NCBI GenBank assembly: GCA_973895155.1
Contig: OZ316894.1
Span: 26,645,240-26,709,239 of the forward strand
Direction of reading: 5' to 3'
Origin: Marsupella aquatica
Taxonomy: Eukaryota; Plantae; Marchantiophyta
DNA: 64,000 bases
Shown here one piece after another: positions 1 to 60,751 of this stretch. The position numbers were made by a program, and so were the translations under genes. How positions within the stretch are numbered: position 1 is the stretch's first letter; each line of letters begins with the position of its first letter. The notes below the pieces were generated by a model. That model had not been told where the DNA came from. It made no database searches and saw nothing but the letters and a program-made list of their open reading frames with translations.

Positions 1-690
1 AGTTGCAACATCACGACGAATAGCCGCTGGCAAATCTAGCTCTCTACCATAGAGCAAGAAATAGGGTGAGAAGGATGCAAGTGATGCTTGTCGACTGAAA
101 CGGTAGCCCATAGCTAACCAAGGCAGTTGGAGATCCCAGTCTCCCAAATGACCAACCTGCAAGCCATACTTGCACAATCCTCTCTTCACAATTTGTACAA
201 CTCTCTCTGCCAATCCATCTGCCTCAGGATGATTGCGAGAAGTAGTACGATGGTCAATCAGAGCTTGCTCACACAAACTCTCAAAATCTCCACGGAATTC
301 CGTGCCCTGATCAGTCAACCTCCAAAGTGACTGAGTACACGATCCAAAAATGTGGCAGCAACTCCTCCGCTAGCTTTATCTGGCAACGCCACTAGCTCAA
401 TCCACTTGGAAAAATGCTCCACCATAACCAAAACATAACGGTTATGTCGTTGGGTGAGAGGCAATGGACCAGCAAAGTCCAAACTCCATCTGTACCCCAA
501 ACCCATGATTGGCAATGGATGCAATTGGGGAGTGGGAGCATTAAATGATGCTTGCACTCGATCACAAACCACACACTTAGCTATCAATTGTTGAACATCA
601 GTGTGCATACCATGCCACCAATACTATGTCTGCAGCAAGCTATAAGTGCGCTTGACACCAAAGTGCCCTAACTCCTCGTGCGCATGTCGC
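1..690 (-). pseudogene. Retroviral-type integrase domain (zinc-binding + DDE core), truncated by window
   Basis: HAHEELGHFG...CVVC zinc motif; RWSLDFAGP (D1), LTDQGTEF (D2, ~295-320), DGLAERVVQIVKRG (E, ~180-220). Confidence 0.9.
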
Positions 691-2519
691 ACCAAATGTA
701 CTGGTTGTGATGGTTTTGGTACCACCAATACCTTACCATCACGTAGTACTCTCAAAAGATGGCTTCCTTCCCATCGAAACCTCTTGGCTCTCTGTAGAAC
801 CCTGTCACGTTCCTTGGCATCAACACTGCCAACAATAGAACCACTGTGCAGATATTCCAACACTCTCACATCATTGTGAATATCTTGCTGTCCAAAAGTT
901 ACCTCACCAACATACACATCTAAAGACTCATCATCTACTTCATCCAATGAAGTAGAATCCACAGATCCACTGCATGCTGGAACCCAACAAAGGAAGGCAG
1001 ATGCATGCCATCCTGACACCATCTCCTTATCTGACTCATCATGCCATCTGGCTCCAGTCTCATCCTGCTGACTGGTACATGGGTTGCGGCTCAATCCATC
1101 CGCATCCAAGTTCACTTTTCCAGGTCTATGTACAACCTGGAAATCATATTCCTGCAACAACAATGCCCATCTTGCAAACTTCCCAGTAAGCTTGTCAGAC
1201 TCCATTAACCACTTGAGAGGCTGATGATCAGTGATCAAAGTGAAAGGATTACCAAACAAGTAACAGCGGAAGTGTGCCACAGCCCACACTGCTGCCAAAC
1301 ACTCTCCCTCATAAGAGCTATACTTAGCCTCTGCTGAATTGTTTGATCTACTGGCATATGCCACAACAAACTCATGCCCTTCATCATCTTTCTGAGTCAG
1401 CACTGCTCCAAGTCCTACTCCACTCCAATCAGTGTGTAGCTGAAATGGTCTCCCTGAAATGGGTCTTCTCAAAATAGGGGATGATGCCAATCTTTCTTTC
1501 AACTCGTGAAAGGCATGCTCCTGATCATCACCCCAAATCCATTCCTGATCCAACTTAGTGAGTATGGTCAAAGGTTTAGCAAGCTGGCTAAATCCTTTAA
1601 CATATCTCCTATAGTAGCTCGCCAATCCCAAGAATGCACGAACTCTGCTCACATCAGTAGGACGAGGAATCTGTCTAATGGCCTCCACTTTAGTCTGTTG
1701 TACACCCAATCCCCCTGGGTATATAGTGTGGCCCAAATACTCAATCTGTTCTTGGAAGAATTTACACTTGCCAGGATGGAGCTTTAACCCATGTGCTCTC
1801 AATCTCTCCAACACAATCTGCAAGTGTTGCTGATGTTCTTCCATAGTAGAAGAATAAACCAAAATATCATCAATATAACATCTGACAAAATCCAAACCCG
1901 CAAGGATTCGATCCATGACTCTCTGAAACTCAGCTGGTGCATTCTTCAACCCAAATGGTAAGAACAACCACTGATACAAACGATCCTTGCCATAAGAATC
2001 AATTCCCCAGAATGCTGTCTTGGACCTCTCAGAATGTCTGATTGGAAGCTGATGATACCCTGCCCTCAGATCCAATAAACTAAAAACCTTTGCATGCCCC
2101 ACTGCATCAAAGATCTCCTCAGGTGTGGGCATGGCATATCAATCAGATTTTGTCTGACGATTAATAGGTCGGTAATCACCACACATTTGCCTATCTGTGT
2201 AATTACCATGCACATCCTTCTTGGCTGGCATCACTGTGGCAGATGCGTACTCCCCGTATGAGATCTCCACCAAACCAGCCTCCAACAAATCTTGATTTCT
2301 GCTCTGAATCAGAGCTCTCTCCATGTCACTATAACGGTATGGTCTACGAAAGATTGGCGCATCACTAGCCAATTCAATCTGAATACCAGGGCCCTTCAAT
2401 GTCCCCAAATCCTTCATGCTGAATGCAAAACAATTCCAATAACTCTTTAGGAATCGATGCATGCGACGTCTCTCCTCCCCTGTCAACTTAGGACCAATCT
2501 GTGGCTCCCAACTCTCCAC
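624..2519 (-). pseudogene. Reverse transcriptase + RNase H of Gypsy pol
   Basis: MCGDYRPIN, LDLRAGYHQL, LPFGLKNAPAEFQRVM, CYIDDILVYS, KCKFFQEQIEYLGH, FLGLASYYRRYV; RNase H LHTDWSGVGLGAVL, YASR, ITDHQPLKWL, ADGLSR. Confidence 0.95.
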
Positions 2520-2779
2520 CAGATCCCTAATATCTTTTTGTAGGGTAGAAGAGATAGCCGATGATTGCTATTTAGCAGTAGATTGAGCAGTCCCTTCCTG
2601 CTCAATAATCTGTCCAGCTTTGGCCGATCTTGCCATAGGTCCATGGACTGTCTGCTTGCCCCCAGCTGTGGTCATCACTGTCTCAATGGACCGCAAGCTC
2701 ACTAATGGACGATCAGTAACACCAGCAGAGCGCATCCACAATTGTTCAGCTACTCCCAAGCTGATAATCCAAGTCAAGC

Positions 2780-3720
2780 AATTCAAATCCATGGCTTGAC
2801 CAAGGACTTGGCGGCGAGAACTCTCTGACACCGAGGCAACTGCAGTAGTGCCTGTCAAAAATCCCATAGGACGCTCTCTTTCATCAGTAGTAGGCTCCAC
2901 TAACTGCTATAGAGTTGTATCCCACACAAGTCCAGGCCCACCTGCTCTAAATGCATATGAAGCAGAATGGCTCACAAAAGTGGGTAATGCACAACGCGGG
3001 CAACCAACTACATTGACCACTGCCAATGGAGGTCTGTCAGACTGGGTCACATGTTGTGCACAACGCCCTGGATCCAAAATATCATCCACCACCAAGGATG
3101 TTGAGCGAGGAATGCTATCAAATGCTCGCTTCAACACTTCACAAGGTAACAAATTAGTCCACCACAAGCGTGGACGATGTGCACGAGAACCCACACGTGC
3201 AGCATCCAATAACACAGCAAGTCCAATCCAAGATCTGACCTGATGAACACTAGCAACAAGTCGATGACGCTCATCACCCAATAGTGGCACATTCTCCAAA
3301 ATGTAGGTAGGGGAATGTGTTTGATGTAACTGGAGATGACGCAATACCCGTAACATCTCCCAAAACAATGCAGAGCGTGGATCATGAAGTCCATGTCCAA
3401 CTCCAGCTCTAGATTGGCCTTGACATGGCCAACCAGCAATCACCAAATCAATAGGGCCAACGCGATCCAAATGATCTGCCCCCAACAGTGAAATATCAGC
3501 AGGCAGTGCATGCTGATAGCCACGAACAGTATCCACTGGCAACAATTGTGGATAACGGTCCACCAACATAGCCACATGGCGCAATGAGACTCTCCCTGTT
3601 ATCTCATCTGTCTCCACATACAAGTAGCGACGCACAGAAATTCCTGCCTGAAGAACAGCAGCCAATCTAGTGCTAATTCCACCAAATAGATCGAGCAAAC
3701 AAATACCCTCTGGTGGATAT
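2780..3720 (-). pseudogene. DNMT3-like C5-cytosine DNA methyltransferase domain embedded in pol (copy 1)
   Basis: Motif I LLDLFGGIST, II YLYVE, IV GPIDLVIAGWPCQG (catalytic PC), VI ILENV, VIII LDAARVGSRAHRPRLWWTNL, IX DERERPMGF, X RRQVLGQAM, in canonical I-X order; in frame with RT except for single stop codons. Confidence 0.9.
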
Positions 3721-4189
3721 TGTCACGCAATAGGGGTGGTATCCAATGGTGAAAGAGTCACTGGTCCACCTGTAGGAGATTGCTCTACTCCTGACTGTGG
3801 TGTAAAAGCATGACGCCATGCATCATGTACCAATTGTGCTGCCCTCTACGGCAAGGCTTGTGGAGTACCCCATACTGGTGGCACAACACTAGTTGGATTG
3901 GGATCATCCCAATCCAAGTTGCTCCTTCGCACCATCTGCTCCTCATGTGACTCCTCCACTGATGGAACATCTGCTGCATGTGCATTACCCTCCATCAAAT
4001 CATCAGGATCAGTGATCAAACCACTGAAGGCTGCCAAAGACAATAGTGTGGGTTTAGGGCCTCCCACAGGTCCACTAAATTGCACTGGCAACCTGCTCAA
4101 TTGAGCATCTCCTGACTGCCAATCAGGTTTATATGATATTGATTCATCCCAAAAATCAAGAATAAATCCCATGGGGTATAACACTATAC

Positions 4190-4570
4190 ATCCCACCAAC
4201 ACATCATATGACTCTGACTTAGTCAAAATAGCTCGTGCCTGTATGTGGGAGCTATCCTTGGCATGACCCTCCTGATCCTCAATTCAAGTGGTCGTCTGGT
4301 GATGTGCTGTGTGGGTGTAGGTCCCCCCAATGAAGTCTGAATAGGAAAGGGACACTCCTCCAGATCATCTGGACGCAATGCCAATCCTCGTACCGCAAAC
4401 TTATCCACCATCAATGGCTGAGCACCAGTATCCAGTAACACTCTCTCTGGCTGGTATATGGCTCCAATAGGTCCAACTAATCGGAAGATACCACTCCGAT
4501 TATCCAATGACACAACACTAGGTTTAAACCGAGTCCTCTCAAATGCAAGGCGTGCTGGTAAATCCATCAA
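4190..4570 (-). pseudogene. Retropepsin-like aspartic protease domain
   Basis: ERVLLDTGAQPLM catalytic D-T-G motif; C-terminal YDVLVG motif after a 1 bp frameshift. Confidence 0.85.
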
Positions 4571-5309
4571 CTTTGCCGCTGTTGCATGCTATGTCTCACT
4601 AGTTGCAGTAGGGGGTGTCAACTTTTTTGCTCTAGAACTGCATGCTGCCTCTGCATGAGAAGCCAAAACTGGAGTATCCTCACATAATGTGGCTGCCAAT
4701 CTGAACACATCGGCTGGACCAATTCCCAAGTGCAGCATGTCTGTCGCTGAGAATAATAGGGTGGGCAATATGGTCGTAGCCGCCCCCAGCAAGGTACCTA
4801 TCATCCCTGCTGCATCACTACCTGATTCTGCCAACTGACCCACACTAGGGTTTGTCCGAACCGGGTTCATAGAGGCAGTCTGAACTGTCTCTAACAATGT
4901 AAAAGATTGAGGAAGCTGTGTCTACCGACGTGCATCCCCCCTCTGTGGATCTAGCTCCACTACTGCTCCTCGGGGCTCAAGAGTTTTTGCTGCCTCACGC
5001 GTCAAAGCTGTTGATGCATCAATGTGTGTAGTGCCACACATGAATCCCATAGTGGCAAGATCTCCATCAACCCCATAAGATGTGGAAGCCCCATAGGATG
5101 TAGAAGCCCCATCACCAGAAGCAAGTCTCACCTGAGAACTAGCCATAGCAGCTAGTTGTTGCTCCAATTGAGCAATCTTAGTATCCTTAGGATCTGTGGT
5201 CGCAACAGGAGCGGTATCACCTCCCTGCCTCGCTACATGTGGCATACCTCAGCCACGACCACCACCTCTAACTCCTCTTCCCTGATCATGTGTGCGTTGT
5301 CCTCCTCTC

Positions 5310-6483
5310 CATAACTCAGGATGGAGTGAAAAACACCTTTCCTTGGTGTGTCCAGGAGCTCCACAATGATCACATTGCCGCTGATCAGGTGCTGAGGTCC
5401 CTCATGACCCTCTATGATCAGGGCAATACCGCTGCGCATGATCCCCACCACAGGTCCAACATCCTGACTATTGTCCAGCATAGGAAGGCACAGGTCTCTG
5501 ACTGGTAGATTCCCGTGCAATGGGCTTCTCCCTCTGACTCTTACGTGCAGTAGGCTATGATGTGGGTGTAGATGCAGCCTTTGGTGCTTCCTTGGCAAAC
5601 CCGGAAGTCACCACTTTCTCATTCACCATATTGAGCTCAATGCGCTCTGAAAGTGTAAAAACAACTGCCAATGTGGGATCTGCATCCCTAAATAGAGTGA
5701 CATCTCTCACTCTGCGTTGTAATTCTCTATCTAGAATTGCATACCAAAATTGGACTGCCTGAGCCTCTGTCACTCCCTTGGTGATAGTGATCAATCTGCG
5801 CATACGAGTGTATGCCTCACGTAGACTCTCTCTAGTCTTGCGTTGAAACTCCTGGAGACCCTTCAACTTATCAATCCTCACACCCTGATAGTTTTGCTTT
5901 AATACTTCAAAGAACTCCACCATAGGGTTAAACGTTGGCGTAACTCCAACCCCCGTCACAATCGCACCGGTAGGAGTAGCGGTGGATGTTGTTGGAGTGG
6001 TACTGGTAGATGGTGTGCCACTCTGGCTAGTGCTGCTAGAAGAAGCAACAGCTGTAGCAATGGGTTGGGCAGCCGCTCTAGTGCCATAGGTGATGGACAC
6101 ATAATTAGGCAACCAATGCTCCTCCATGCCTCAATCTCAACCAAATGAGCCTTCCAAAACTCATGGTAGTCATCCATGGGTGGCCCCTCCAAATGCTGAA
6201 ATAATCCTTTCCATGCCATGAAAGGGGTAAACAACGTGGCATTACGTAATGACTGCATATCGCACCACGTATCAAACTTCTGGATGAAGTCATCCAGATC
6301 AATCGTGCCAACTGTACCAGAGTATCGTCGTGGGCCCTTTGTAGCCCCGTACATCTCTTCCATATCCCACAACAAAGGTGCAATCATCTGATGACAAGGA
6401 GACCTGGTCATAGAGTCCTCGTCAGAATCACTATCTGAAGCTGCACTTGCAACTGCTATCAATGTTGTTGGCCGAAACGGCAC
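5310..6483 (-). pseudogene. Gag (retrotransposon capsid-like) with two zinc knuckles
   Basis: YSGTVGTIDLDDFIQKFDTWC and FQRKTRESLREAYTRM (Gag Q-x4-E-S-x3-Y-x2-R type motif); knuckles CWTCGGDHAQRYC (~5425-5462) and CDHCGAPGHTKERC (~5333-5375) read from the minus strand. Confidence 0.8.
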
Positions 6484-6795
6484 CCCACTTCGAGTGAAAC
6501 CGGTCCTCTATCCCTCGAACAGTCCCGTAGCACCCAAAGAATCCGTGATGACAAATCTGCCCTAAATCATCACCATCACCTTCATAATAGGCTTCACAAT
6601 GCCCCAATGTTGTAGCTAAGAATCCATGCAAAATTGATCCAATCTATGCATCCAGATGGATTCAGAAGTATCAAAAACTTCTAAGTAGCTTCTAATTTGG
6701 CCCAAAACAGGTCTCTAGACAAACTAACAAGTGTATAAAGCCCCCTGGCCCTTCAACTTAGACAACAAGTTGTGAAAGCTTGTGTGTACACTATG

Positions 6796-8314
6796 TGTCA
6801 TAAGAACTCCATGGTTAAGCACGCGCAGGAGGAATAGCTTTGGGATGGGTGACCTCCCCCTTGGAGTTATGCACCAACTTAGGCACTCCAAACCAACCAA
6901 TTGTCAACTACTCCTCCCGTACCAGCAAGCTGCCTTGCGGCCCACTCCGGTCTGGCTTCTGCTCCGCCCTCACGCCCCTCGTCACGAGTCGCCTTGAAAC
7001 ACCGAGATGAGCCTGAGGGAGCCCTTCACACCCGCCACACTCCGATACGTCGGGGTGAACCTCCAATTCAAATCCATTCAACAGTCATCCGGACGCTCGG
7101 TCCGCAAGTTGGAGTGGGATGATCCCAATCCAAGTCCTTCACGTCCACTACACAGGTGAAGTCACCAACATACAATTGGATTGGGTTGATCCCAATCCAA
7201 ATCCACTTCAAGATCTAGATGAGGTCTGTGGACACGCCAACACAAAGTCGGACTCGGATGATCCCAATCCAAATCCACTTCAAGGTCCAGATGAGGTCTG
7301 TGGACACGCCAACACAAAGTCGGACTCAGATGATCCCAATCCAAATCCACTTCCTAGTCAAAATGAGGTCAATCTCAAGAGACAACCCGTAATTGGACTA
7401 GGATGATCCTAGTCCAAAACAAGGCGCGCCACAAAACACGCCGCAATTCTCGGACCACAACACTGTTCAACAATATTGTCGTTTTCCTTGTGCCCTAGGT
7501 CGCCGCCACACCTCGTCTTAACGCGGACTCCATTGCGACACCGACAATGAAATTCACCAACCTTCGATTGTCACTTCCTTCATAAGTGCACTATCCATCA
7601 ACAAACCTCAAATCCGCAACAACCTTTGCAATGCAATCAATAAGGACTAGAACTCCAAAAATGCAATGTAGCAACTAGCACTCAAAGCGCCTTCTGATCT
7701 TCGATCAGTCTTTCATTGCCATATTCGACAAGCTCCAAATGTCAATTTGATAATCAACTTCAAACCGGACTTCAATGAACAAACTATTAGAGAGCTGCAA
7801 ACAGCACCAAGCTGCGCTCTCCGAGTAATCAATAGCTCACAATCCCCAATCAACTAGCCGCTGATCTGACTTGAGCTACCACAAATCAACCAGCAAGCTC
7901 TCCACGATCCAAGCTACCATGGATCAACTCTACAATACAGCAAGCTTCGAAACAGCTTCGAATCAACTTGCAGTGATCTTTCAATGTAATCTTCAATGGA
8001 TGAAATCGAACAACAAAGGTGCAATCCAACAACAATCCCGTCCAACACGATCACACATATATATCAAGCCCAACGCACCTTGTGCTTCAAGGAATCCATG
8101 TTACATGCACACAACCTGGTCAGCCACACCATAGCCACCGAGCTCATGCTCAAAGGCTCAACATTGAAAGATGAGGCCTTTGAGCCAACACAAGGGGATA
8201 ACTATCCCTCACACCAACTCAAACTAAACACAAAGTGCTCATATAGCACACATACAAAACCTCTATACCCTGGATAGTACAATATACTTTACTACCACTC
8301 TAAATGGTGTGACA
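6796..8314 (-). repeat. Candidate 5' LTR of copy 1
   Basis: Outer end TGTCACA at 8314 is well supported by the homology breakpoint. Inner end ...TTATGACA at 6796 is only a guess: no canonical tRNA PBS was recognised and the partner LTR is outside the window. Confidence 0.5.
7176..7352. repeat. 72 bp tandem repeat (~2.3 units) inside the putative LTR
   Basis: GATCCCAATCCAAATCCACTTC starts at 7188, 7260 and 7332 (period 72). Confidence 0.9.
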
Positions 8315-10950
8315 TGGTTTTGGTGCCACCAACACCCTACCATCACGCAATACTCTCAGAAGATGGTTTCCTTCCCATCAAAACCTCTTGGCTCTTTGTA
8401 GAACCTATCACGCTCCTTGGCATCAACACTGTCAACAATAGAACCACTACGCAGATATTCCAACACTCTCACATCATTGTGAATATCTTGTTGTCCAAAA
8501 GTTACCTCACCAACATCCACATCTGAAGACTCATCATCCACTCCATCCAATGAGGTAGAGTCCACAGATCCACTGTATGCTGGCACCCAACAAAGAAAGA
8601 TAGATGCATGCCATCCTAGCACCATCTCCTTATCTGACTCATCATGCCATCTGGCTCTAGTCTCATCCTGTTGACTGGTACATGGGTTGCAGCTCAACCC
8701 ATATGCATCCAAGTTCACCTTTCCAAGTCTATGTACAACCTGGAAATCATACTGTGGAAGATGCATACTCCCCATATGAAATCTCCACCAGTCCAACCTC
8801 CAACAAATCTTGAGTTTTGCTTTGAATAAGAGCTCTCTCCATGTCACTATAACGGTATGGTCTATGAAAGATTGGCGCATCACTAGCCAATTCAATTTGA
8901 ATACCAGGGCCCTTCAATGTCCCCAAAACCTTCATGCTGAATGCAAAACAATTCCAATAACTCTTCAAGAATCGATGCATGCGACGTCTATCCTCCCCTG
9001 TCAACTTAGGACCAATCTGTGGCTCCCAACTCTCCACTAGATCCCTAATATCTTTTTGTAGGGTAGAAGAGATAGCCGATGATTGCTATTTAGCAGTAGA
9101 TTGAGCAGTCCCTTCCTGCTCAACAATCTGTCCAACCTTGGTCAATCCTGCCATAGGTCCATGGACTGTCTGCTTGCCCCCAGTTATGGTCATCATTGTC
9201 TCAATGGACCGCAACCTCACTAATGGACGATTAGTAACACCAACAGAGCGCATCTGCAACTGTTCAACTACTCCTAGGCTGATAATCCAAGTCAAGCATT
9301 CAAATCCATTGCTTGACCAAGGACCTGACGGCGTGAACTCTATGACACCAAGGCAACAACAGTGGTGCCTGTCAAAAATCCCATAACACGCTCCCTCTCA
9401 TCAGTAGTAGGTTCCACTAACTGCTGGAGAGCTGTGTCCCACACAAGTCCAGGGCCACCTGCTCTGAATGCATATGAAGCAGAGTGGCTCACAAGAGTGG
9501 GTAATGCACAACGTGGGCGCCCAACGACATTGACCACCACCAATGGATGTCTGCTAGGTTGGGTCACACCCTGTGCACGACGCCCGAGATTAAAAATATC
9601 ATCCACCACTAAGGCTGTTGAGCGTGGAATACTGTCAAATGCGCGTTTCAGTACCTCACATGCATGGGATCAAATTAGTCCACCACAAGCGTGGACAATA
9701 TGCACAAGAACCCACATGTGCAGCATCCAATAACACAGTAGGTCCAATCCAAGACCTCACCTGGTGAACACTGGCAACAATCCAACGACGATTATCACCT
9801 AAGAATGGCACATTCTCCAAAATGTATGCTAGAAACTATGTCTGATGTAGCTGGAGATGACGCAACACCCATAACATCTCCCAAAATAATGCAGAGCGTG
9901 GATCATGAAGTCCATGCCCAACGCCAACTCTAGATTGGCCCTAACATGGCCAACCAGCAATCACCAAATCAATGGGGCCAACATGATGCAAATGATCCGC
10001 CCCCAACAATGAAATATCAGCAGGTAGTGCATGTTGATAACCACAAACAGCATCCACTAGCAACAATTGTGGATATCTATCCACGGCCGCAATGAGATCC
10101 TCCGTGCTGTCTCATCTATCTCCACATACAAATAACGACGTATAGGAATTTCTGCTTGAAGAACAACAGCCAATCCAGTGCTAATCCCACCAAATAGATC
10201 CAACAAGCAAATACCCTCCGGTGGATATTGCCAAGCAATAGGAGTGGTATCCAATGGTGAAAGAGTCATCGGTCCATCTACAAGAGACTACTGTGCTCCT
10301 AACTATGGTGTAAAAGCATGACGCCATGCATCATGTACCAATCATGTTGCCACCTGCGGGGATGCTTGTGGCAAGGCCTGTCCAGTGCCCCACACTGGTG
10401 GCACCACACTGCCAACAGGTAATCCCCGCATGATCTGCTCTTCATGTGACTCCTCCAATGGTGGAACATCTGCTACATGCGTCCAAATTAATCAAATCAT
10501 TAGGTCCAATAATCACACCACTGAATGCGGCCAAAGACAATAGTGTGGATTTAGGGCCTCCCACAGGTCCACTAAATTGCACTGGCAACCTGCTCAATCC
10601 CACCAACACATCATATGACTCTGCCTTAGTCAAAATAGCTCGCGCCTGTATCTGTGAGCTATTTGTCGCATGACCTTCCTGAATCCTCAAATCAAGTGGT
10701 CTCCTGGTGATATGCTGTGTACGTGTAGGTCCCCCCAATGAAGTCTGAATGAGGTAGGGACAATCCTCCAAATCCTCTAGACGCAATCCCAATCCACGTA
10801 TGGCAGACTTACCCAAACATCAAGGGTTGAGCACCAGTATCCAGTAACACTCTCTCTGGCTGGTATACAGTTCCAAAAGGCCCAACTAATCGAAAGATAC
10901 CACTCTGATTATCCAATGACACAACACTAGGTTTAAACCTAGTCCTCTCA
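8315..10950 (-). mobile_element. Second, diverged and internally deleted copy of the MTase-bearing Gypsy family
   Basis: Colinear with copy 1 positions ~710-4540 (protease, MTase, RT start, RNase H end); lacks ~1.08 kb of the RT/RNase H core (junction ~8750) and 90 bp at ~10597. Confidence 0.92.
9300..10230 (-). pseudogene. DNMT3-like MTase domain, copy 2
   Basis: LLDLFGGISTG, YLYVE, IAGWPC*G, ILENVP, DERERVMGFLTGTT, RRQVLGQA; disrupted by stops and small indels. Confidence 0.88.
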
Positions 10951-11469
10951 AAAATCTTTAAAACTCTATCTGTGTTGGAGCTGACAGGAAACTGGCGGAG
11001 CTGTTTGAACTTGTTACTGGGTGTTTTTAAATTGTTTGGAAGGATTGAGTGCTCTTATTTTGATTTGATCTAGTCTTCCCTTGCTTTCTCTCCGATTGGA
11101 GAATGGTTTTTACTCATGATGGATCCCATTTTACTGCGGACGTTTCATCAATGTTGATTACGCGTTTGCTGATCAGGATTAGGGCTTGAACCAACTCCTG
11201 CAAGTTGTTCTAAGGTTTTTTTGCGGCTCCGCTTCTTCCTTGTTACACACTGGGCGAACTGCTTACGATTTTGCGCTGGGGTTCTGTCTTCACCTAGGGG
11301 ATCCTATTTTGTTACCGGGATTACGGGCGAGGGATGTCACATCGGGGATCGCTGCTGCACTATATTGTGGAAAGTTTCTAAGTTCTCTCGGAAACCTCTG
11401 TGGAACGCTGTTTTCTTTGTTATGCGGGTGAGCACTCGTCCCTGCTAATTTTTGATTACGGCAGCATAA

Positions 11470-13393
11470 GTGACTACGTGCTTTCGGGTTACACTTGAGA
11501 TTGTAAGGACTACTGCTCCTTCTTTTAACTCTACTAGTCTGGACGTTAAGGTTCTTTCTCCCTACGCACAACGCTGCTCCTGTTGGTTGTGTCCACGCAT
11601 GTCTTCTTCCCGTGGTGGTCTCTATGGTCGTGGCGGCCGAGACGCGCCCTTACGGGACCTCCAGATGCACAGGGATGCTGAAGGTGGGGCCGGTCATTGG
11701 GTGGACCCTGGTCGCAGACATTCAGGGAGAAGTGATAATTTTATGATGGAGGGGCCTTATGTTGCTCCCTCGGGTTTCTCTCGGCAGGATGTTCGCTCTA
11801 ACCATCCGCCTCCCCCCCACTTGAATTCATCCAATGCTTCTACATCCTGCTCGTCGGATGTTCCAATGTAGAGTTGGTTTGGTACAAAACCTTCTGGCAC
11901 GGTGGTGGATGGATTTGTTTGCTGGGATGCATATAGATCTTGGGACCACTTTATGATGGACCAATTGGAAGGTCGGATTGCACCTCCTGCTACGGAGATT
12001 TTTCATGACAACATCGGGGAGCGCTCTGAGCAGACGCGGACAGTTCCTGTTGTCCATCCTAAGGGGCAGACGCTGCGCCCTAGAGTGGGCCTTCCTCCCT
12101 CTCATTTGGCTTCTCCTACTTTGGCTAGTGAGACCCCTGCCGCTGCTTCGCGGGTTGAGGAAGTGGAAGCTTGCATTCCTCTCTTAAAGAGAATCGCGGA
12201 TCTGTCGGTGCAAGACTGGCCCTCTAAATTACACACCACAGTACAATGGTCTCTTGAAGAGGCTGCGGAATCTGTTACGGAATTGTTCAATTGCACAATG
12301 ATGTGCTATTTCACTGACCGGGCCCCGATGCTACCTACGTTCAAATTCTAGGTTAATAAAACTTTTGTGCAAGAGATGGAATGGCCGGTTACCCAGGTAA
12401 AATTCATGCGGAAGAGCTTCTACATGGTGACCTTCAAATACCCTGAGCACCGGGATTTTGCGCTTGCTAATGCGCCATGGTTTTTAGAACACAATTTTGT
12501 TTTTACGTTCCCTTGGGACCCCTCTTTTTACATCAGAAGTGACTCTTACACTATGCTCCCGGTCTGGATTGAAATCCCCTTTCGAGCTCTAATTCTGGAG
12601 CCGTGCCGTCACAAGCTTGCTGCCTCTCTTGGTGACATTCTACATTACATCCAAGGTGACAACTTAAGCTCCTACCCACACGATCGTGCGTGCGTCTTAT
12701 GGGATACTCAACGTGAAGTTCCTTGGAGTGTTGAAGTTCAGATTCAATCTGGCCTTTCTATCTGGCAACCGGTGATCTTCAAAAATATACCTTTTCACTA
12801 CTTCTGTTGTGGCAAGAAGGGTCATTTAGCACGAGATTGCTCCACTCTGGAAGAAGCGGAAACTACTCAGTTGGATGCTACTGAGATTATTGGCGAAGAG
12901 GGGCTGCCAGTTCCGGTCCAGATGGCGAGTACTATACCCTGTGAACTTGGTGTTCCTGAACCAATTCCTGTCATAAATCCTGAGGTCCCACCTTCTGCTC
13001 CTGTGATTACAACACGCGACCCCGTCTCTGCTGCTGAAACAAATTCTGATGTGCGGCTCTTTGGGAGCCTGATTGCGGTTGTACCTAACACCACCTCCAC
13101 TAATTTGGAGTGTGAACCTGAACCTGTGGACTCTTTGCCTGCTCCAAAGGTTCAACCTTTTGCTGATCTCCTATCCCCCCAACAAGAGAGTATCCCTCGT
13201 ATTATTCAAGACTTGCAAGCAACGAACCAATTCATCGTGACCCCCTTGAATTCTTGATCCCCACTTAAGGATTCATCTGAGGACCTCAAATTGGTTGCTG
13301 CCCTTGCACCGAGTTCCCACCCATCACGTGAGCCGGATGGAACCTCTGAAGAGAAGGACAAGATGGAAGACGAGGCCTCTGCGTCTGAATTAC
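11470..13393 (+). pseudogene. LINE (L1-like) ORF1 remnant, DUF4283-type domain + zinc knuckle
   Basis: FYMVTF..., APWFLE, PWDPSF, LPVWIEIP, WQPVIFKNIPFHYFCCGKKGHLARDC (degenerate CX2CX4HX4C) are typical of plant LINE ORF1; interrupted by stop codons. Confidence 0.75.
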
Positions 13394-16300
13394 TGTGGTG
13401 CATCCCATGGCTCCCCAAACCCAAGAAAACCCCCTTGCTCAGGCCAATTCCCGCAGGTTTTGTCCTCGGCGAGGCCGTTTATGGGGCTTAGCGGCATGGG
13501 ACGCTACTAATCCTCCTTCTACTACTATTAACATTTTACACACATATATTGGACAGATCCTTCATCGGGTCATGAGATACTTAGCCGGCCTATTCTAGGC
13601 CTTCCCTTGTATTCCTCTCCTGGTCTTCCATTAGGTATGTTTGGATTCCGCCGCCGGAATGATCCCCAATTGGCTTGGTTAAGCCGCTAAGACCTCTCTC
13701 AGCTCGACACATCCAACTCTCACTCCCTTGCTACTTCCCTTCATTGATGTGGGCACTCTTCACACAAGTTAATGCGACACACAAATAGCAAAATGACTCC
13801 TTTTGACTGAGTTATACCATGCACTTGCCATACAAACAGTACATCTCATACACAAGCTCTGCGGACTAAGCCGTGAGGCCAACTCTATTCAGTTCTTAGG
13901 CATGAGGAAACATGAATATACACAAGGGTCACTGTATAACTAACCGAGAGCTTCTCTTACTACTTGATCCCAGCCCTGCTGGTGCAACTAAAAACTTGCT
14001 AAAGAAGAGGCCCTGGACTCCTCGCTGCCTAGGTATTTATCCTGGCAGTGGATCTGTCCAGAACTTTGCTGCGTAAGCTTAATCTATCCTACCTGTAATC
14101 TACCTAACTGTATAGCGAGGCAAGAGCACAAGTGTTGCTCCTACCAGTGGATCCGCCACCCCACTAATCTAAGTGTCAGGGCCGTCTCTTGGTCTTGATC
14201 CTAATCCTAAACTTGGAGATCTGAGCCCGCCCTGCCCACTCACGCCTCCTACCTCCACGTCCGCCCTTCCTAAAAGGAACGGCGCCCTTGCACCGTCACA
14301 ACACCGGTGGCGGATCCTCAATGGACGCCCCCAATGCTTCCCCCGCAGCCACTGCTGTCGGTCCGTCCTCTGATAGATTACCTACCCCGGACCGAGTCAA
14401 CTCTTCATCGGCTTGACTGGGTCCACCCTCGGCTTCGGCCTCAGCATTGGTCACGGCCTTTGATACGGCTTCGGCCTCCCCAACATGTTCTAGTGGAGGA
14501 TCCGGTACCTCGGCTTCATCAATAGCTGTCCCGGCCTCGGGCCTGCCATCTCCACCTTCTTCAACAGGTGGATCTACTACCGTGACCATGCTAGAGGTTG
14601 GTGCCGGATTGACCTCCTGGGTCACAACGGCTTGGTAAGCCGTATAACTCCCAGACCTAGAAGGTTTCCGCTTCTTCTTTTTTCCTGTTTCGGTAGCTGG
14701 TCCCTTAAGGCCCTTTGCTACCTACCTCCGGCACCGGGGCTTGTGTCTCGGCTTGTCCTTTGGCCAGTACCCCTCCTGGTAACGAAGTTCCCACAATTGG
14801 ATTTGGACCAGATGAAGCCAAGCACTTAAATACTGCGGCCTATTTCTTCAGCCGCTCCATTTGGTTGTCGGCCCGCCGCTGTAAGTTCTCCAACTTCCTG
14901 GTGGTTTCCTCCAACTCCTCCTGGGCTTCCTCCAGGTCCTTCCGTCCCTCCTGCAGCTCCTTTCTGGCTTCCTCCAAGTCCAATTTTAAGGTAGCCCTCT
15001 CCTCCTGGGTTGCTCTTAGCTCCTTGTCGAGCTCTGCTACGACCTCAGACTCCATCTTATTCATCTTGGCATAAGTCTGGTCGAGCTGGTCGTCCTTTTC
15101 ACGTAGGTCGGCCTTGAAGCTGGTCGTCAGGGACGCAAGCTCCTGCTGCAGCGCAATAATCCCTTGATAGGATTTCCCTAACTCGGCCTCCTTCTGCTCA
15201 AGGGCTCTGCGGATATCCTTGAGCTCTCCTTTCAACGCCCTCTCCCTTCTCTGAGTCTCCGCCATGGCCCGGTTGTTGGCGGTTATGTGGGCCTCCTCTG
15301 CGTCCCTCAGCTCCTACTTCCACTTCTCCCTGTCCTTGACCGCGCCGGCCAACTCTCCTTGGGTCCGAGTCAGTTTATCCTTGATAATCTGATTGCCAGA
15401 CTGAGCGGCATCCAATTGTCCTTGCATGATGTTTAGCTCATGCCGCTTAATTCGTAGCTCATCTTGGTCTTTCTTGGCCGCCTGCAGGTCTTCCACCTCG
15501 GCTTCCATCTCCCTAAGCCGTCGGATGACCTTGTCCTTCTTGCTTCTCTCCAAACCCACCGCTTCTTCTAATCGGTGCTTCTCCAACCTCTCCCTTTGGA
15601 AAAAGGGTCCCTGCTCCAACTCCTTCCCAAAGATGCTGAGCGCAAGATCCCCACACATTTCCCTGTACTCCATGGCTCTATCTTTAGCATAGGTGGAGTA
15701 AGTAGAAGTCATCGGCATCAACCACCGCGGCCTCTGTTCCCAAGCCGCCTTGCGGATTTTTTCTATGGTGGCAAGAGGGTTGCTTCTTTTTTTGGCAAGC
15801 CGCCTGATGTCCTCCAGCCAATCTCCTCCTGGTAAATCTTTCTCCCGTGCCAGGGCTGCTTTCTCTTCCTCCCTAAGTCGCTCTTGAAACTCTTGTGCCG
15901 TCTGCTTTATGCCGTCAAAGCTCAGGGGAGCAACCTCTGGTGGGGGAGACTTGGGGCTACTCTGTTGGGTGGGGTCCCCTCGAACTACTCGCGGAAGCGT
16001 GGGGATAAACCGGCCACAGGTCCTTACTCCTGGAACATGATGATCCGACCCATAGCTGGAGTTATCATTGTTGTAGTCCTCCACCGCCTCCTCCATTCAA
16101 TGACTCCCGGCTTCCCCCTCTGTTCCCCTGGTCCTGCCGTGAAAACTGCCTCATAGATCACGGGCTCCGGTTCCTCCTCTGGTTTCCAGGCTGTCCTCTC
16201 CCTCTGATTTTCGCGGGAAGGAGCCTTAGGCTGCTCTGCCTCCGATTCGGGGCTTGAGGCTCCCACATACATTCAAACTCCCGACTTGTGTTCCGACCTC

Positions 16301-18117
16301 CTTCTCTCCTTGGCTCCAGTAAAGGGGTTTTCCCTCCTGAGTCGGCTTAGGCCGGCCTCTGGGGCAGTGTCCTGTACCGGTGCCGTTGCCGTTGCTGGTG
16401 CCGTTCTCTCCTTCTCCAACAATTTTAGCAGATTCTGCATGCCTGATTGCTGCTTCGGCAAGTCTTCTTTCTTTGGCCGAAACACCTGCTCGATCATAGG
16501 ACTGGCAGGCTGGTTGGGCTCTTCTGTTGCCGGCCTCTGCTCCGGAACCTCCTCTGGTGCGCTTGCCGATAGGGAAAGTACTGGGGCAAAGATTTGACTT
16601 CTGGCATACCGGCACAACAGCGGCATGTGATAGCCAAGCCGGGACATGCTTCCCACGCCGATCACCTGCTGTTCCTCCTTTAAGATCTTCTTTAGTTGGT
16701 TGAGGAGGTACCCATTGTAATCTTGGCTTGGGTCTGGCCTTTCTGCCAGGTAGACCTGAGCCTTGCCGATCTCTGCCCTCGGCAAGTTACAATGCATGGT
16801 CACCCGCAAGAAATTGATCATCTCTCCAATGTGCGGGTTGGTGCAGGTGTTCCGGAAGAAGCCATTCTTCATTGATGGTCCTGGGAACGACCGGAACTCC
16901 TTGTCAGGTAAGGTCTTCTTGGTATCTACTTTGGTCTTATTACCCATCGGCAAGCCAAACACCTCGGCAATCACCCGGGGAGTGAGATAGAAATCCTTCC
17001 CATACACCCTCGTGGAGTTGGTCTCGGGTTCCCATGATCCCACAAATTCTAATAAGTCTGAGTCCGGCACCTCCGGCTTCAGCCATGGTAATCTTACGAA
17101 GGCTTCCAAGCCAGATTCGGCCATGAAGCCCTGGTACTTCTTGGTCTGCATGGCCGTAAAGCATGCATCCTCCTCCCTTGCAAAATGTAATTGCACTTCC
17201 TCTGGTAGGGTCGCCGCCCAGCCTTTCCAGGTGTCATTCTTTGTTGGAATGGCATTGATGGGATCGACCTCCTCCTCTTTGGCTTCTCCCTGCCTCCTAT
17301 TCTGCTGCTCTGTTGGCTTCCTTGGTGCCGCCGACCTCGTTCTTTTTGTCGGGGTGGCCTCTTCGATGTTGTTTCTTTTCCTCTTCATCTTGGCTGCCAT
17401 GGATGTTTCTCCTAGCACAGTTGCCTTCGTCCACCCCTCCGTGCTACCCTTCAACTCCCAGTGCGCGTCGTTGCAGCGGTTGATGGCTTTCCAAATGCCG
17501 ACAATTCTGTCTTCGCAAAATAGAAGGTCATCGAGCTGATTGGCAGTAGGAGTCCACAAGAACTCGGCCTTGATGAGTTCTCCTCCTAAGAAGGCAGACT
17601 TCTGCAGCTCCCACAGTCGAGCGAGCTCCTGCCGTTCTCAAGCTGCTCTCTCCGATTCCTCGTCCTCGTAAGTCTTAATGTACTCAATTGCCCGTTCGAA
17701 CAGGCATCCCCAAAAATGTGCCGCTTGATTGACGTTGCTCATACCCTCCTTGAGTCGATCGTTGGTATCTGCTCCCGCCCAGAGTGCTTGCCTAAGCAGC
17801 TGACAGTAGTTGGCCTTCCGTAGTCGTCTGCCCAGTTCGTGCTTGCAAATGAGCCACCATTCCTCGCGAGCAGTCCTTACCTCTCTCCTCCTCTGGTCTT
17901 TCCTCCCGTTGGTTACCCCTAGCCGCCGATGCTTAGCGCGCCCTAACCCTAATCGTGTTTTCCCCTGACGTCCTTACTTCCGGCCTCGGCCCGGGTTCCA
18001 TAGTCACCCTTAATTGTTTATATTTTCCTTATTTTTGTTACTATACTAATGTGTTTATAGGGTACACCTCCGTTTTCCCCACTTAACTGGCCTAGTGATT
18101 CCTGGCTAGGCATCACA
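13394..18117. mobile_element. 4.7 kb insertion bounded by TGTGGTGC...GCATCACA (solo-LTR-like or other TG..CA element)
   Basis: 7/8 terminal inverted match; flanks ATTAC / GTTGC (possible decayed 5 bp TSD); interrupts the LINE ORF1 tail; no long internal direct repeats seen. Confidence 0.5.
14296..17900 (-). pseudogene. Long decayed ORF (~1200 codons): plant-mobile-domain/Athila-ORF-like segment followed by a coiled coil and low-complexity tail
   Basis: 16273-17559 and 16024-16272 are in frame across one TGA; 15314-16096 and 14840-15265 are in frame across one TAG. LLEFVGSWEPETNSTRVYGKDFYLTPRVIAEVFGLP resembles TE-associated plant mobile domain proteins; E/K/L heptad-rich coiled coil at 14840-15600. 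Confidence 0.6.
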
Positions 18118-21100: not shown

Positions 21101-22027
21101 ACACTACCTAATCTGAGGATTATTGACACATCTAATCCCGAATTTCCCCCCGGAGTTCCATCATCATTTCCACGCAGATACAACCCTAATCCAGGCAGGG
21201 AGCCCCCGCACCTGCGATCGAGATCGCGGACCCGCGCCGGTGCTCCCGACTGCTCCATGCAAAAACCTGTAAAGGGTGGGCAACATCGCGGGCCAACCCG
21301 GCATCGTTGTTACGAAATTTTCGCCAATGAACCCGCGCTGAAGTCGATGTGTGTGTCTCGCCTTTCTGTGTCTCTCTTTGCGCAGAGTTCTGCTCTCTCT
21401 CGCTCTCTCTCTTCCCTTTCTTTGGCAAACAGCTCTGATCTGCTCAGCACACCTGCGTGTCTCTCTGCGCCTCGGCCTTTGCCCCGCGGTGCTGAATTTG
21501 AGATGGGTTAAAACTTAAAAGCATTTTGAGCCAGCAGCACGGCTGCGGTGGTGGGGGGAGGGGGGCAGGAGGAGCGGCACCCATGGGGTTGAGCTTCAGG
21601 ATGCCGTGCCTCAACGGCTGGCCGTTCTACCGCTGCTGGGAGGGGAGCAAAGAAAAGTGAGGTGGAGGGTAGAGGGATGATGGAGAGAGCCATGGTTGTG
21701 GGCATACTGTTTTGCGAAGATGGCAGGGGGAGTTTGTGATTTTGTTGCGGGTTCTGTTCCGGGGGATGAATGAACGAATTTGGGGTGCGGTGTTGTCGGT
21801 GGCGGAAGCAGGCACGAAGAAGGAGGAGGATCTTTGAGGAGGTGGTTAGACGGGGTGTCGGTCTTGCGTCTATCCATTTCTCGGCTGGCCTGGATTGGAG
21901 TCACTCCTAGAGCTGAGTGAGGTCGGGTCGGGTTCTGTTCTCGTTAAATCTGCGATCGGAGAGCGGCTGGGGCGGGGGACGAGAGGGCACGAGGACGGGG
22001 ATCAGGACGACCGGAGATCTGTCTGTC

Positions 22028-25000
22028 ATGGCGACGGCCCCTCCGGCACTGCCGCGGAGGGGACATGCGTTCGAAGGTGGAAGAGGGCGGAGCACGCAAG
22101 GGTTTGGTAGTAGTCATGTAGGTGCAGGAGCAGCAGGAGGAGCGACCGAGAGTAGGAAGCAGAGCAGCCGCAACAACGAAGCGAATTGCAAGAAGAAGCA
22201 GGACCTTAAGCACGACCTTTTCGACGACGATGATGAGGACGAGGATGAGAAACCCCTCTGCATAGTTAGGTCGGGGTCGGGCAGGAAAGGGGAGGTTCCT
22301 TCTACTACACCTAGGAGTTCTGCTCGTGCTGCATCCCCTCTAACTACTGTTAAAGGCGGGGCCACTAGCGGGGCGGGAAGCAGTAGAGCAGAAGTGGTGG
22401 GAAGCGGCGGTGGTACGATGAAGGAAGTAGGAGTGGAGAAGAAACGACTTCTGGGGGGAGACGGTGCTGGAAAGGCTGTGGGAGAAAGTAGTGCGGGTGG
22501 TGCTGGAGGAGCTGGGTCGCCTGTGACAAAGAAGGTCAAGATGGGTGGAACTGCGGGCAACGCCATGGAGCCCTCGAAGAAAAGGGAGCCGAATCGCGAC
22601 GAGGACGCCGAGGACGATGTGCCATTAGCCAGCCGTATGAGTAGGATTGTCCCTCCTAGTACTAAGAATGACGGTGTAGACTTGGTAAAGGCGCAATTAG
22701 TGGTTGCCAAGAAAGTCATGGAGGACAGGTTGAAAGCGAAGACGGAAGGTGGAGGATTGGCGAACATGGCCAACCTATCCGGTACCACTACCAATGGTGG
22801 CGCTGTTACTGCGGTGCCTGGAAAGGGTAGCATATCCCGCGTCTCATCGGAGGAAGGAAAGGAAGGACACGGACGCATTCTGACCCACAGTTTACCTGAC
22901 ATGGATGGAAAGAAACCGGACGTTAAGTCAGCAGCGAAGGCTCCTGCGAGGCCATTGCCAAAGCCTGTGTCGAGACCATCAGTGGAGCGGAATTGGGTTC
23001 CGGATTCGGACGATTCTGACGATGACAAGCCGCTGAGCCATAGGAAGTCCATGAGCTTAACGATGGGAAGGGATTCTAAACCTGATAGTACTGAACTGAA
23101 AGAGGCCTTTGCGAAGAAGAGACCAGCGGGGCAAGCGGTTGTGAGTCCAAATAGTCAGTCGGCTTTGAAGAAGTTGAAAATTGTCCCAAGTGGGTCGCAG
23201 AAATCATCCTCCATTCGATCGCCCAAGTCAGGGTCCTTGTATTCACCTAGGGCTGCGGTGAAAAGGGAGTTGGATTCTAGCACTAAACCTGCCGTGCGAA
23301 GAGCAGATCCCAATGATGATGACGACGATGTTCCTCTGGCTCAGCGTATGTCTTCACTTACAGCGAAATCGAACAACTCAATGAAGAAGCCACCTGCGGC
23401 ACCAGTCAAGGTGTCAGCCAAAGTAGAACGAGATCGGGACGACGACGATGATGACGACTATGTGCCCCTCGCCAAACGCGCCGGACAAACGCCTGTTGTC
23501 AAAGCAGCAACGAAAGTGGGTGCCACGATAAAGAAGCCCTCGGCCGGCTCTGCTAAATCTATAACGAAGAAAGTTTTAGAGCAAAGGCGGAAAGGGAAAG
23601 GTACTGTGAAAACAACAAAGCATGTCGTTAAAACCAAAATTGCGAAGAAGAGCGAAAGCAAGATGATTGTCAGCGGCGGGACACAGAAGTGGGAGACTCT
23701 GGAGCACAATGGAGTAATCTTCCCTCTGCCGTATCAACCCCATTGTGTTAAGATGCTATACAGGGGGAAGCCCGTGACACTTACTCCTGAACAAGAGGAG
23801 GTAATCTTCACTGGCCATCCTCGTTCTAGCATTTTTATCAATCATATGTGACATTATGCTTTATCTCCTATACCTAGGGTATTGCTGGGATTCAAAAAGG
23901 TGGTGTCGGGTGGGGTAGGGTATCTTGTACTAGGTCAGTGCACATATTTTCCTCGTCCTGTCTTCCTTAAGCAAAGCCAACCCTTTCTGCTGGGAGGCTG
24001 GATGCCAGTTTAGTAACATAATGTGCTACTGTCCCTTCACGGACCGAGCTTCGTACATGATTGGAGGGCTCTTAAGGATAGCCCTGGTCGAAGCTATTCC
24101 ATTAGATTGAAAGTGTATTGTCCGTTTAGTACCTTACAGTTGTTGAATCGATGTTCTCATCGTTTCATAATGTTTGGGTCACGGATGGCTATCTTTGAGC
24201 ATTGTTGTAAATCGTTGGTACATCGTCATTTTATCTCGAGGCCTTCATGGGTGTGTCCGTAGGATTTTTCCTTCCTGCCTTCTCCTTGATCTCAACAGCC
24301 TTTGTTGTGGGCGATTCACTATGGAGATGCGGTGTGTCATTTTACCTGAAAATGTGCAGGTTGCTACAATGTTTGCGGTGATGAAAGATACCGACTACGC
24401 AACGAAGCCCAAGTTCATTGAGAATTTCTGGGCCGATTGGAAGCCAATTCTTGGTAACCGCCACGTCATTCAAGATTTGGAAGGTTGCGATTTCACACCG
24501 ATATACGAATGGTTTATGGCGGAGAAGGAGAAGAAAAAGAGTACGAGCTCAGAGGTGAATTTCTCATTTATGACAAGCTTTCCCTCCCCGCGTCATGGAA
24601 GGAAAAAGTATACCAATTACTGGCAATAGGAACGTATCTGGGGTGTCAGTAGTATGCTGTCTGCAGTAGGTTTGCCTACTTTCTCTTGGTGGGGGTCCCC
24701 TAACCATTTCATCGTGTTTTCTTATTGAATTGAACTTTTGTATTGGAACCTTCTTATGTACATAGGTTGACTGGACATCTGATAACTGGCAATGACGACA
24801 TACTGACGTTACTTAGTTTTTGTTAGCTTGTGTCTGACATGCTGTACTCTCTCAGGAGAAGAAGAGGCTCAGAGAGGAGAAACTGAAGATGGAAGATAAA
24901 TATATGTGGGCCCTTGTAAACGGTGTAAAGGAAAAGGTATTTTCCGGAAGCTGGCATTTTCGATTTAGAATATGGATTAATGTCACGTCCAGGAATCAAT

Positions 25001-51296: not shown

Positions 51297-51594
51297 CTCA
51301 GGGGTCTCACTATATGGAGGCCTCCCCATCACTTGTGATATTTTTAGGCCTCAGACCCCCTAAAATGTAAGAAAATAATAATTTTTCAACCCCTATAAAG
51401 TTAGAATATTTTTGGAACATTCTAAAAATTTGATTATAATGACCCTAATGTTCTTATAAGTCTCAAAATTGGATTTAAAAGATCCTATTGTTCTTATAAG
51501 AAAAATTTTAAGTCTTCATTTCCAACCACCAATAAAATGACCCTATCCTTTGTCGCATGTGATGTGTCATTTTTGTGGAAATGAAACCCCCGAG
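51297..51594. mobile_element. MITE (~298 bp), 15 bp TIR, 8 bp TSD ATTCACTG
   Basis: Ends CTCAGGGGTCTCACT ... AATGAAACCCCCGAG, flanked on both sides by ATTCACTG; inverted homologue at 60457-60751. Confidence 0.88.
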
Positions 51595-60456: not shown

Positions 60457-60751
60457 CTCGGGGGTTTCACTTCCACAAAAATAGCATATCACGTGCGACG
60501 AAAGATAGGGTCATTTTATTGGTTCTAAGGGAAGACTTAAAAAATTTTGCAGAAGAACAATAAGGTCTTTTAAATTCAATTTTGATACTTATAAGAACAT
60601 TAGGGTATTTTTAATCCAATTTTTGGAATATTCCAAGAATACTCCAACTTTATAGAGATTAAAAAATAATATTTTTTCTTGCATTTTAGGGGGTCCGAGA
60701 CTAAAAACGTCGCAGGTGATGAGGAGGTCCACATATAGTGAGACCCCCGAG
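60457..60751. mobile_element. MITE (295 bp), 15 bp TIR, 8 bp TSD TGTGTGTG
   Basis: CTCGGGGGTTTCACT ... AGTGAGACCCCCGAG (14/15 inverted match), TGTGTGTG on both flanks; reverse-complement homologue of 51297-51594. Confidence 0.88.

Follow-up and report, generated by a model that had tools for sequence, protein, structure and literature searches.

Why would a retrotransposon encode a DNA cytosine methyltransferase, and together with which of its proteins is that enzyme made? The question is raised by a 64,000-nucleotide stretch of the genome of the liverwort Marsupella aquatica (assembly GCA_973895155.1, contig OZ316894.1, forward-strand positions 26,645,240 to 26,709,239), which we call the window and number from its first letter. 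The minus strand of the window holds two copies of a decayed Ty3/Gypsy-type retrotransposon, copy 1 (1-8314) and the deleted copy 2 (8315-10952), which are 85 to 92% alike and both carry a methyltransferase domain. Comparison with relatives indicates that the domain lies at the end of the Gag-protease open reading frame (ORF) and is followed by a conserved stop codon in a context of the readthrough type.

A DNMT3-like methyltransferase in a Ty3/Gypsy-type element

The two copies have the following parts, where RT is the reverse transcriptase and "profile" is a profile built from relatives.

6364-8314 (-): 5′ noncoding region of copy 1, starting with TGTCA at 8314, as do the left ends of relatives
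7156-7371 (strand not assigned): three 72-bp tandem repeats within that region
4457-6363 (-): Gag; weak Retrotrans_gag match and CCHC-type motifs; frameshift near 6120 and several stops; matches the Marchantia protein P0006
4149-4456 (-): aspartic protease (LLDTGA); profile match and weak Pfam match; split by a frameshift near 4275
2742-3710 (-): DNMT3-like C5 cytosine methyltransferase domain; profile and Pfam matches; one decay stop at 2907-2909
2562-2570 (-): conserved UAG stop closing ORF1, then CAA UCA (UAG-CAR-YYA readthrough consensus), from the junction comparison
1728-2246 (-): RT; profile and Pfam RVT_1 matches; decay stop at 2139-2141
1146-1454 (-): RNase H; profile and Pfam matches
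1-713 (-): integrase, truncated by the window edge; profile match and weak Pfam match; frameshift near 318
8315-10952 (-): copy 2, with protease, methyltransferase (10218-9286, frameshifted), stop and signal (9088-9080), and an RT-RNase H deletion at 8751

Frameshifts near 6120, 4275, and 318, along with several stops, show that copy 1 is no longer functional; the protease frame that is shifted in it is open in the close relative P0451. The methyltransferase of copy 1 shares one reading frame with RT (2246-1728), with RNase H (1454-1146), and with the initial stretch of the integrase (713-318); the PHD finger and right end found in relatives would fall beyond the window edge. The integrase start of copy 2 is broken off where copy 1 begins, and a contig from one sequencing run (X1) diverges from the window sequence at 8311. 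Contigs of four sequencing runs (3,189 to 15,536 per run) cover all 30 bins of positions 1-8400, which shows that the family is many-copy, a coverage that cannot rank the parts of the element. No protease-to-RT joint was found among the joints listed (15 of 92). A hairpin-like motif of 25 to 30 nt in the 5′ tandem repeats (7106-7418) reappears in the protease-methyltransferase linker (3891-3922).

The methyltransferase domain of copy 1 (approximately 3710-2742) matched the profile at an E value of 4.9e-143 and PF00145 at 1.6e-11, above the Pfam cut-off. In the usual numbering of C5 methyltransferase motifs, it has motif I (DLFGG, ~3692-3678), motif IV (PC, with the Cys at 3425-3423), motif VI (ENV, 3296-3288), motif VIII (HRPR, ~3179-3168), and motif X (GQAMD, 2801-2787), and the catalytic Cys, ENV, and RxR stand in unrearranged order. 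For comparison with structure databases and for fold prediction we used the domain of an intact relative, L004, which is 69% identical to that of the window. By sequence, its best matches among solved structures were DNMT3A/B (DNMT3A, E = 1e-11), with the best non-DNMT3 structure at 3.7e-5, HhaI at 8e-4, and DRM2 at 0.02. Its predicted fold (pLDDT 95) matched DNMT3A/B in Foldseek at an E value of 1.3e-20 (TM 0.73/0.84), and all 32 of the matches listed were DNMT3. By sequence and predicted fold, then, the domain classes as DNMT3-like, its nearest solved relatives being DNMT3 rather than DRM or bacterial enzymes. It shares the fold and catalytic motifs of host DNMT3A/B (PDB 6f57, 6w89, 6u8p), but the identity is only 20 to 22% and the element domain is transposon-encoded. 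Pfam scans of ORF1 found no PWWP or ADD match.

In an alignment of 71 relatives, the catalytic C, EN, and R-x-R are conserved at 90% or more. Comparison of the open copies L010, L011, and L012 gave a ratio of nonsynonymous to synonymous substitution rates (dN/dS) of 0.10 to 0.13 for the methyltransferase, 0.05 to 0.07 for RT-RNase H, and 0.33 to 0.57 for the linker; judged by these ratios, the methyltransferase is under purifying selection. The ratio among decayed Sphagnum-type copies, 0.33 to 0.52, is in line with what is expected after insertion.

The element has relatives in liverworts and mosses (Marchantia polymorpha, M. paleacea, Calypogeia fissa, Riccia sorocarpa, Sphagnum fallax, and S. 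troendelagicum) and in algae (Closterium and Hariotina); a profile search returned 538 clusters at E values up to 1e-30, of which the best 150 were examined. They show two layouts, protease-methyltransferase-RT and RT-RNase H-methyltransferase-integrase-PHD. Trees of the RT and of the methyltransferase from 75 elements with both domains (12 of the first layout and 63 of the second, three near-duplicates having been dropped) had no conflicting split at a support of at least 0.95, and layout formed a single split in each. Once methyltransferase-less relatives were added, the second layout became a nested clade (support 99, quick tree), and the protease-methyltransferase-RT layout is therefore likely ancestral. 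Since the sister layout is one derived branch of the RT tree, the trees suggest one old capture of the methyltransferase and a later move within the polyprotein. The sister clade, with the methyltransferase between RNase H and integrase, comprises L019-L021, L023, L024, L027, P0037-P0043, and many of P0166-P0300; it includes a Haematococcus protein, and a Hariotina protein carries a methyltransferase and a PHD finger, which suggests an undescribed chlorophyte family.

The window RT groups with those of Marchantia, Calypogeia, and the Sphagnum-type loci L002 and L004 (support 97). It is adjoined by a Coleochaete scutata transcript (P0303) with an RT-RNase H-integrase-PHD ORF; there is thus transcription in a relative beside the bryophyte elements, and the split may be older than land plants. 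The broader RT clade around this group includes RTs of Closterium and Klebsormidium, and no Klebsormidium methyltransferase was retrieved among the relatives found. Sampling was by methyltransferase, and 48 RT-RNase H-integrase-PHD proteins have their upstream region out of view, so that relatives without the domain are possible. Neighboring RT lineages (P0383, P0384, P0391, and P0397) bear the adenine methyltransferase domain PF05869 (Dam type), in most cases together with a PHD finger. Element copies filed under bacterial assemblies labeled Synechococcales and Obscuribacterales (L035, P0439, and P0046) are most likely contaminating contigs.

Part of this had been proposed in an earlier reading of the letters of the window alone (the sequence-only reading). 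It placed a C5 methyltransferase domain between protease and RT, in one frame with RT, RNase H, and integrase, and the two profile matches, the five motifs, and the shared frame, as far as the shift near 318, agree with it. Copy 2 does have sense codons at the stops at 2907-2909 and 3723-3725, as was said, and the domain is DNMT3-like by sequence and by predicted fold. The view that the methyltransferase is an integral part of the element rather than a passenger is upheld by the lack of introns, the constraint, which the dN/dS comparison proposed there brought out, and the agreement with the RT tree. The separate phylogenies it called for came out congruent between RT and methyltransferase, in trees of element domains only.

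The stop codon between methyltransferase and reverse transcriptase

Copy 2 has a stop (9086-9088) at the position of the one at 2568-2570 in copy 1, and comparison of relatives indicates that this stop is not a product of decay. The 33 metagenome loci comprise 17 close relatives whose sequence extends to the methyltransferase-RT junction, 6 whose sequence ends earlier, 2 without a stop, and 8 of the algal type; the two stop-free loci (L028 and L029) are one deep-branching element, and the algal-type L015 and L031 were assigned by likeness. The 17 close loci, L035, and the two window copies gave a set of 20 junctions. All 20 have TAG, which is followed by CAR in 18 (L013 and L030 read TAA), by YY at the next two positions in all 20, and by a final A in 12. 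The full UAG-CAR-YYA motif is present at 11 of 20; the window reads TAG CAA TCA. By comparison, CARYY follows 41 of 2768 TAGs in the element loci and 22 of 1656 in the window (1.3 to 1.5%). The junction TAG is in frame with RT in 18 of 20 cases, 22 to 29 codons upstream of a conserved anchor, the others being L014, which ends first, and L030, which is frameshifted. The flanks of the junction differ across approximately five lineages.

Intact elements and annotated proteins have the same boundary. The intact L012 has an ORF1 of 1369 amino acids (aa), then TAG CAG TTA, and in the same frame an ORF2 of 1047 aa with RT, RNase H, integrase, and PHD finger. Among 41 complete protease-methyltransferase proteins, drawn from 50 with that layout, 34 end 57 to 181 aa past the domain, and ten from Marchantia end 75 to 77 aa past it; P0004 (84% identical) and P0451 end exactly at the stop position of the window. 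For Marchantia, Calypogeia, and Coleochaete, the stop is read from protein ends only. Among viral contigs, the element had one distant match, at 29%, and the junction had none.

A stop codon with a type I motif is passed by a few percent of ribosomes. Stop suppression in plant elements has reportedly been covered by a 2003 survey of gag-pol recoding in long terminal repeat (LTR) retrotransposons and by work on the soybean element SIRE1, and for this reason we do not claim readthrough as such to be new. UAG-CAR-YYA is described as the type I, or tobacco mosaic virus (TMV)-type, readthrough consensus of plant viruses (PMC3542737), and murine leukemia virus (MuLV) is described as making Gag-Pol through UAG readthrough (PMC5009743). 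The element resembles these systems in its in-frame UAG and type I context and, as in MuLV, the stop would separate abundant Gag from scarce Pol (PMC3542737, PMC5009743). It differs in the position of the stop, which lies downstream of the protease and the methyltransferase rather than separating Gag from protease.

Because the stop is conserved together with the readthrough signal, the comparison indicates that the methyltransferase domain ends the Gag-protease ORF in this clade, that is, that ORF1 is Gag-protease-methyltransferase. The RT-RNase H-integrase-PHD part would very probably be made by readthrough.

Proposed role of the methyltransferase and competing accounts

We regard the anatomy, namely the domain order, the DNMT3 fold, the catalytic residues, the purifying selection, the congruent trees, and the conserved stop with its context, as close to certain. 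The best overall explanation, to which we give somewhat better than an even chance, is that ORF1 encodes Gag, protease, and a DNMT3-like methyltransferase ahead of a leaky UAG, that the enzyme is packaged at the level of Gag, and that it likely methylates cDNA before integration. Protease and methyltransferase would then be attached to every Gag, and only the minority of ribosomes that pass the stop would go on to make RT and integrase; the methyltransferase, made at the Gag level, would hence be abundant in the particle. Its packaging and its release by the protease are probable by analogy with Ty3/Gypsy biology. The released enzyme would methylate new cDNA inside the particle before integration. 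By analogy with the Symbiodinium retrotransposon DNMT3, reported to methylate CG de novo in yeast (PMC5890265), the chances are about even that cDNA is methylated, most likely at CG, and that the new copy arrives premarked. The mark may disguise, protect, or restrain the new copy.

Several observations weigh against this explanation. The eight Sphagnum-type junctions have C or T, not A, at +6, and seven of the eight have an in-frame ATG at +7, which weakens the case for readthrough there. The stop is missing from Closterium and from several deep relatives, so that Gag-level dosage is not required throughout the lineage. The 20 junctions amount to approximately five independent lineages, with near-duplicates among them (L005/L006 and L016/L017). 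The Klebsormidium domain is reported to have given no methylation in yeast, a result that its authors called inconclusive (PMC5890265). Finally, CG depletion is uneven between copies. The CG ratio of the window copy is 0.37, that of L004 is 0.28, and that of L010 is 0.70, two algal-type loci reach 0.91 to 0.97, and two host genes, for comparison, have 0.77 to 0.90. Host methylation could account for the depletion, which we dropped as a test of self-methylation, as it does not discriminate.

A doubtful but still substantial alternative keeps the same anatomy and gives the methyltransferase another role: its targets would lie outside the particle, in integrated copies, rival elements, or host chromatin, or it would be a noncatalytic DNA-binding module. 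Synthesis at the Gag level would far exceed the need of two cDNA copies, restraint of transposition is among the options given by the 2018 authors (PMC5890265), and the Klebsormidium domain is reported to have been inactive in yeast (PMC5890265). However, the conserved catalytic residues count against a purely noncatalytic module, and fusion to Gag, or to Pol in the algal-type relatives, would place the enzyme in the particle in both layouts.

It is improbable that RT and integrase come from splicing, with the TAG as a 3′ splice site, or from reinitiation past the stop, rather than from readthrough. The TAG does end in AG, the Sphagnum-type copies have a T run upstream of it as well as the ATG at +7, and seven annotated gene models bridge the methyltransferase to the downstream domains. 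Yet the junction reads TAG and never CAG in all 20 cases, followed by CAR-YY in 18, and both the T run and the ATG are absent from the other lineages. The seven models, moreover, join at seven different points, as introns made by a predictor would, unlike one real intron.

The sequence-only reading had made the methyltransferase part of one continuous Pol (protease-methyltransferase-RT-RNase H-integrase), interrupted only by nonsense codons that were all decay. Such an arrangement holds for Closterium (P0283 and P0422) and for the deep relatives P0280, P0308, P0316, P0329, P0346, P0419, and L028/L029. For the clade of the window it is refuted and very unlikely indeed, as both window copies, P0004, and all 18 close loci reaching the junction stop at the same place, with a TAG at 20 of 20 junctions and the CAR-YY signal after it at 18. 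That the domain came in as an independent passenger, or as a pseudogene captured from the host, is likewise refuted and next to impossible; nothing was found in its favor, and the identical position in mosses, liverworts, and Closterium, the lack of introns, the purifying selection, and the congruent trees all count against it.

Element ends, known systems, and other features of the window

The left end TGTCA is common to L003, L009, and L022, and copy 1 starts likewise at 8314. Both relatives with the two ends in view, L009 (3991-12630) and L022 (3758-13456), have TG...CA ends and 4-bp target duplications (TACA and ATTA, respectively), and neither has terminal repeats: no 11-mer is common to the two ends, and blastn gave no repeat linking them; the paired LTRs assumed in the sequence-only reading are thus missing from two complete relatives. 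In L010 (8235-8246), L012 (8656-8667), and L035 (7051-7062), the homologue of the right end is followed by two bases and then TGTCAC, forming a CA-GY-TG junction. With A for the left-end segment and B for the right-end segment, these three have a B|A junction and L009 and L022 are A-coding-B, a full A-coding-B-A-B copy not being among the five; L035 is a circular contig and so cannot decide on paired terminal repeats. A GCTAG-G-run tract is kept in all five relatives 109 to 117 nt before the right end, where it is not followed by left-end sequence. A search by shared words found no conserved tRNA primer-binding site, and none was identified in copy 1. No LTR partner was identified for the 5′ region of copy 1, of which only the left end is visible, its 3′ end being outside the window. 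A candidate 745-bp LTR (8314 to ~7569) was dropped, as it has no partner and no counterpart in relatives.

The right-to-left joins in three relatives suggest integration by cutting of the junction. Reverse transcription would yield a B+A repeat, in cDNA that is circular or terminally redundant, and the integrase would cut this cDNA at its palindromic B|A junction; a two-repeat circle so cut would give A-coding-B-A-B, and a one-repeat circle, or recombination between the Bs, would give A-coding-B. HIV-1 integrase is reported to be able to cleave a palindromic 2-LTR junction internally (PMC1905944). That the integrase cuts the head-to-head CA-GY-TG junction is a proposition on which we are evenly divided, drawn from five relatives only and not from the window copy. 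A broader synthesis is more tentative: a green-plant-wide lineage, alive in model bryophytes, would combine DNMT3 at Gag stoichiometry through a leaky stop, premethylation of cDNA, and LTR-less integration at the palindromic CA-GY-TG junction in circular cDNA, which is the logic of DIRS elements with a retroviral-type integrase.

Known systems share parts of this design. With Ty3/Gypsy elements, the family has in common the Gag-protease-RT-RNase H-integrase order with a DDE integrase and, in relatives, the TG...CA ends and 4-bp target duplication, but L009 and L022 lack paired long terminal direct repeats. KnitGypsy-Dnmt3 of Klebsormidium nitens, as described in PMC5890265, is likewise a streptophyte Gypsy element with an intronless DNMT3-type domain under purifying selection, and its reported DIRS-like A-coding-B-A-B repeats fit the B|A junctions found here. 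The Klebsormidium RT GAQ93234, possibly that of KnitGypsy-Dnmt3, falls in the same broad RT clade (support 0.96; 94 in another tree). In contrast to the window clade, where the DNMT closes the Gag-protease ORF before a leaky-type stop, KnitGypsy-Dnmt3 is described as having its DNMT in the Pol ORF with RT (PMC5890265), an arrangement also seen in Closterium, and its host is an alga rather than a land plant. SymbioDIRS-Dnmt3 (PMC5890265) also has a DNMT3-type domain in a retroelement polyprotein and split direct repeats, but it is a DIRS element with a tyrosine recombinase and another RT, whereas the present family has a DDE integrase and 4-bp target duplications. The DAM-LTR/EpiLTR elements (bioRxiv 10.64898/2026.05.21.726589) are Ty3/Gypsy elements with DNA methyltransferases and a chromatin-reader domain; they are described as having adenine methyltransferases, DNMT4-related domains, and a chromodomain, in contrast to the DNMT3-like domain and PHD finger here, and their authors set them apart from the streptophyte Gypsy-DNMT3 elements.

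The Gypsy-DNMT3 kind as such is already published (PMC5890265). For the bryophyte family, its stop, and its ends, a literature search found no description, most subscription papers being beyond its reach, in line with the sequence-only reading, which knew of no described land-plant family. A 2019 review has land plants such as tracheophytes without such elements (PMC6338049), the searchable supplements of the 2018 survey do not name Marchantia or Sphagnum (PMC5890265), and later citations of streptophyte Gypsy-DNMT3, where accessible, name no land plant in that context (PMC12344493; bioRxiv 10.64898/2026.05.21.726589). The main text of the REXdb paper, so far as it could be searched, mentions neither PHD nor Marchantia (PMC6317226). 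The role of transposon-borne DNMTs has stood as a question since 2018, one reason being that their known hosts are difficult experimental organisms. Marchantia has several open genes of approximately 1280 aa for Gag-protease-methyltransferase, annotated as hypothetical proteins, which brings that question within reach of experiments in a genetic model. From the conserved stop one would expect a methyltransferase dose far above that of RT, and from the ends an integration route outside the LTR rule; such a route would also account for the failure of LTR-pair finders to detect the family. Counts of DNA methyltransferases in bryophytes may be inflated by these elements.

The rest of the window has features of other kinds. 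An open PPR-E-DYW frame of the organellar RNA-editing factor type lies at 43982-46261 (+) and, like the bryophyte relatives of the element, fits a moss or liverwort host. A long open frame at 21917-23851 (+) closes with the beginning of a PF02919 domain (topoisomerase I, DNA-binding). The stretch at 12352-13257 (+) encodes DUF4283 and a zinc knuckle, a combination typical of ORF1 in plant long interspersed elements. At 14840-17973 (-) there are GC-rich, strand-skewed long open frames, two of which (260 and 454 aa) were scanned and had no Pfam match. Inverted repeats of approximately 300 bp at 51297-51594 and 60457-60751, 9 kb apart and 77 to 90% complementary, are possibly the ends of a DNA transposon.

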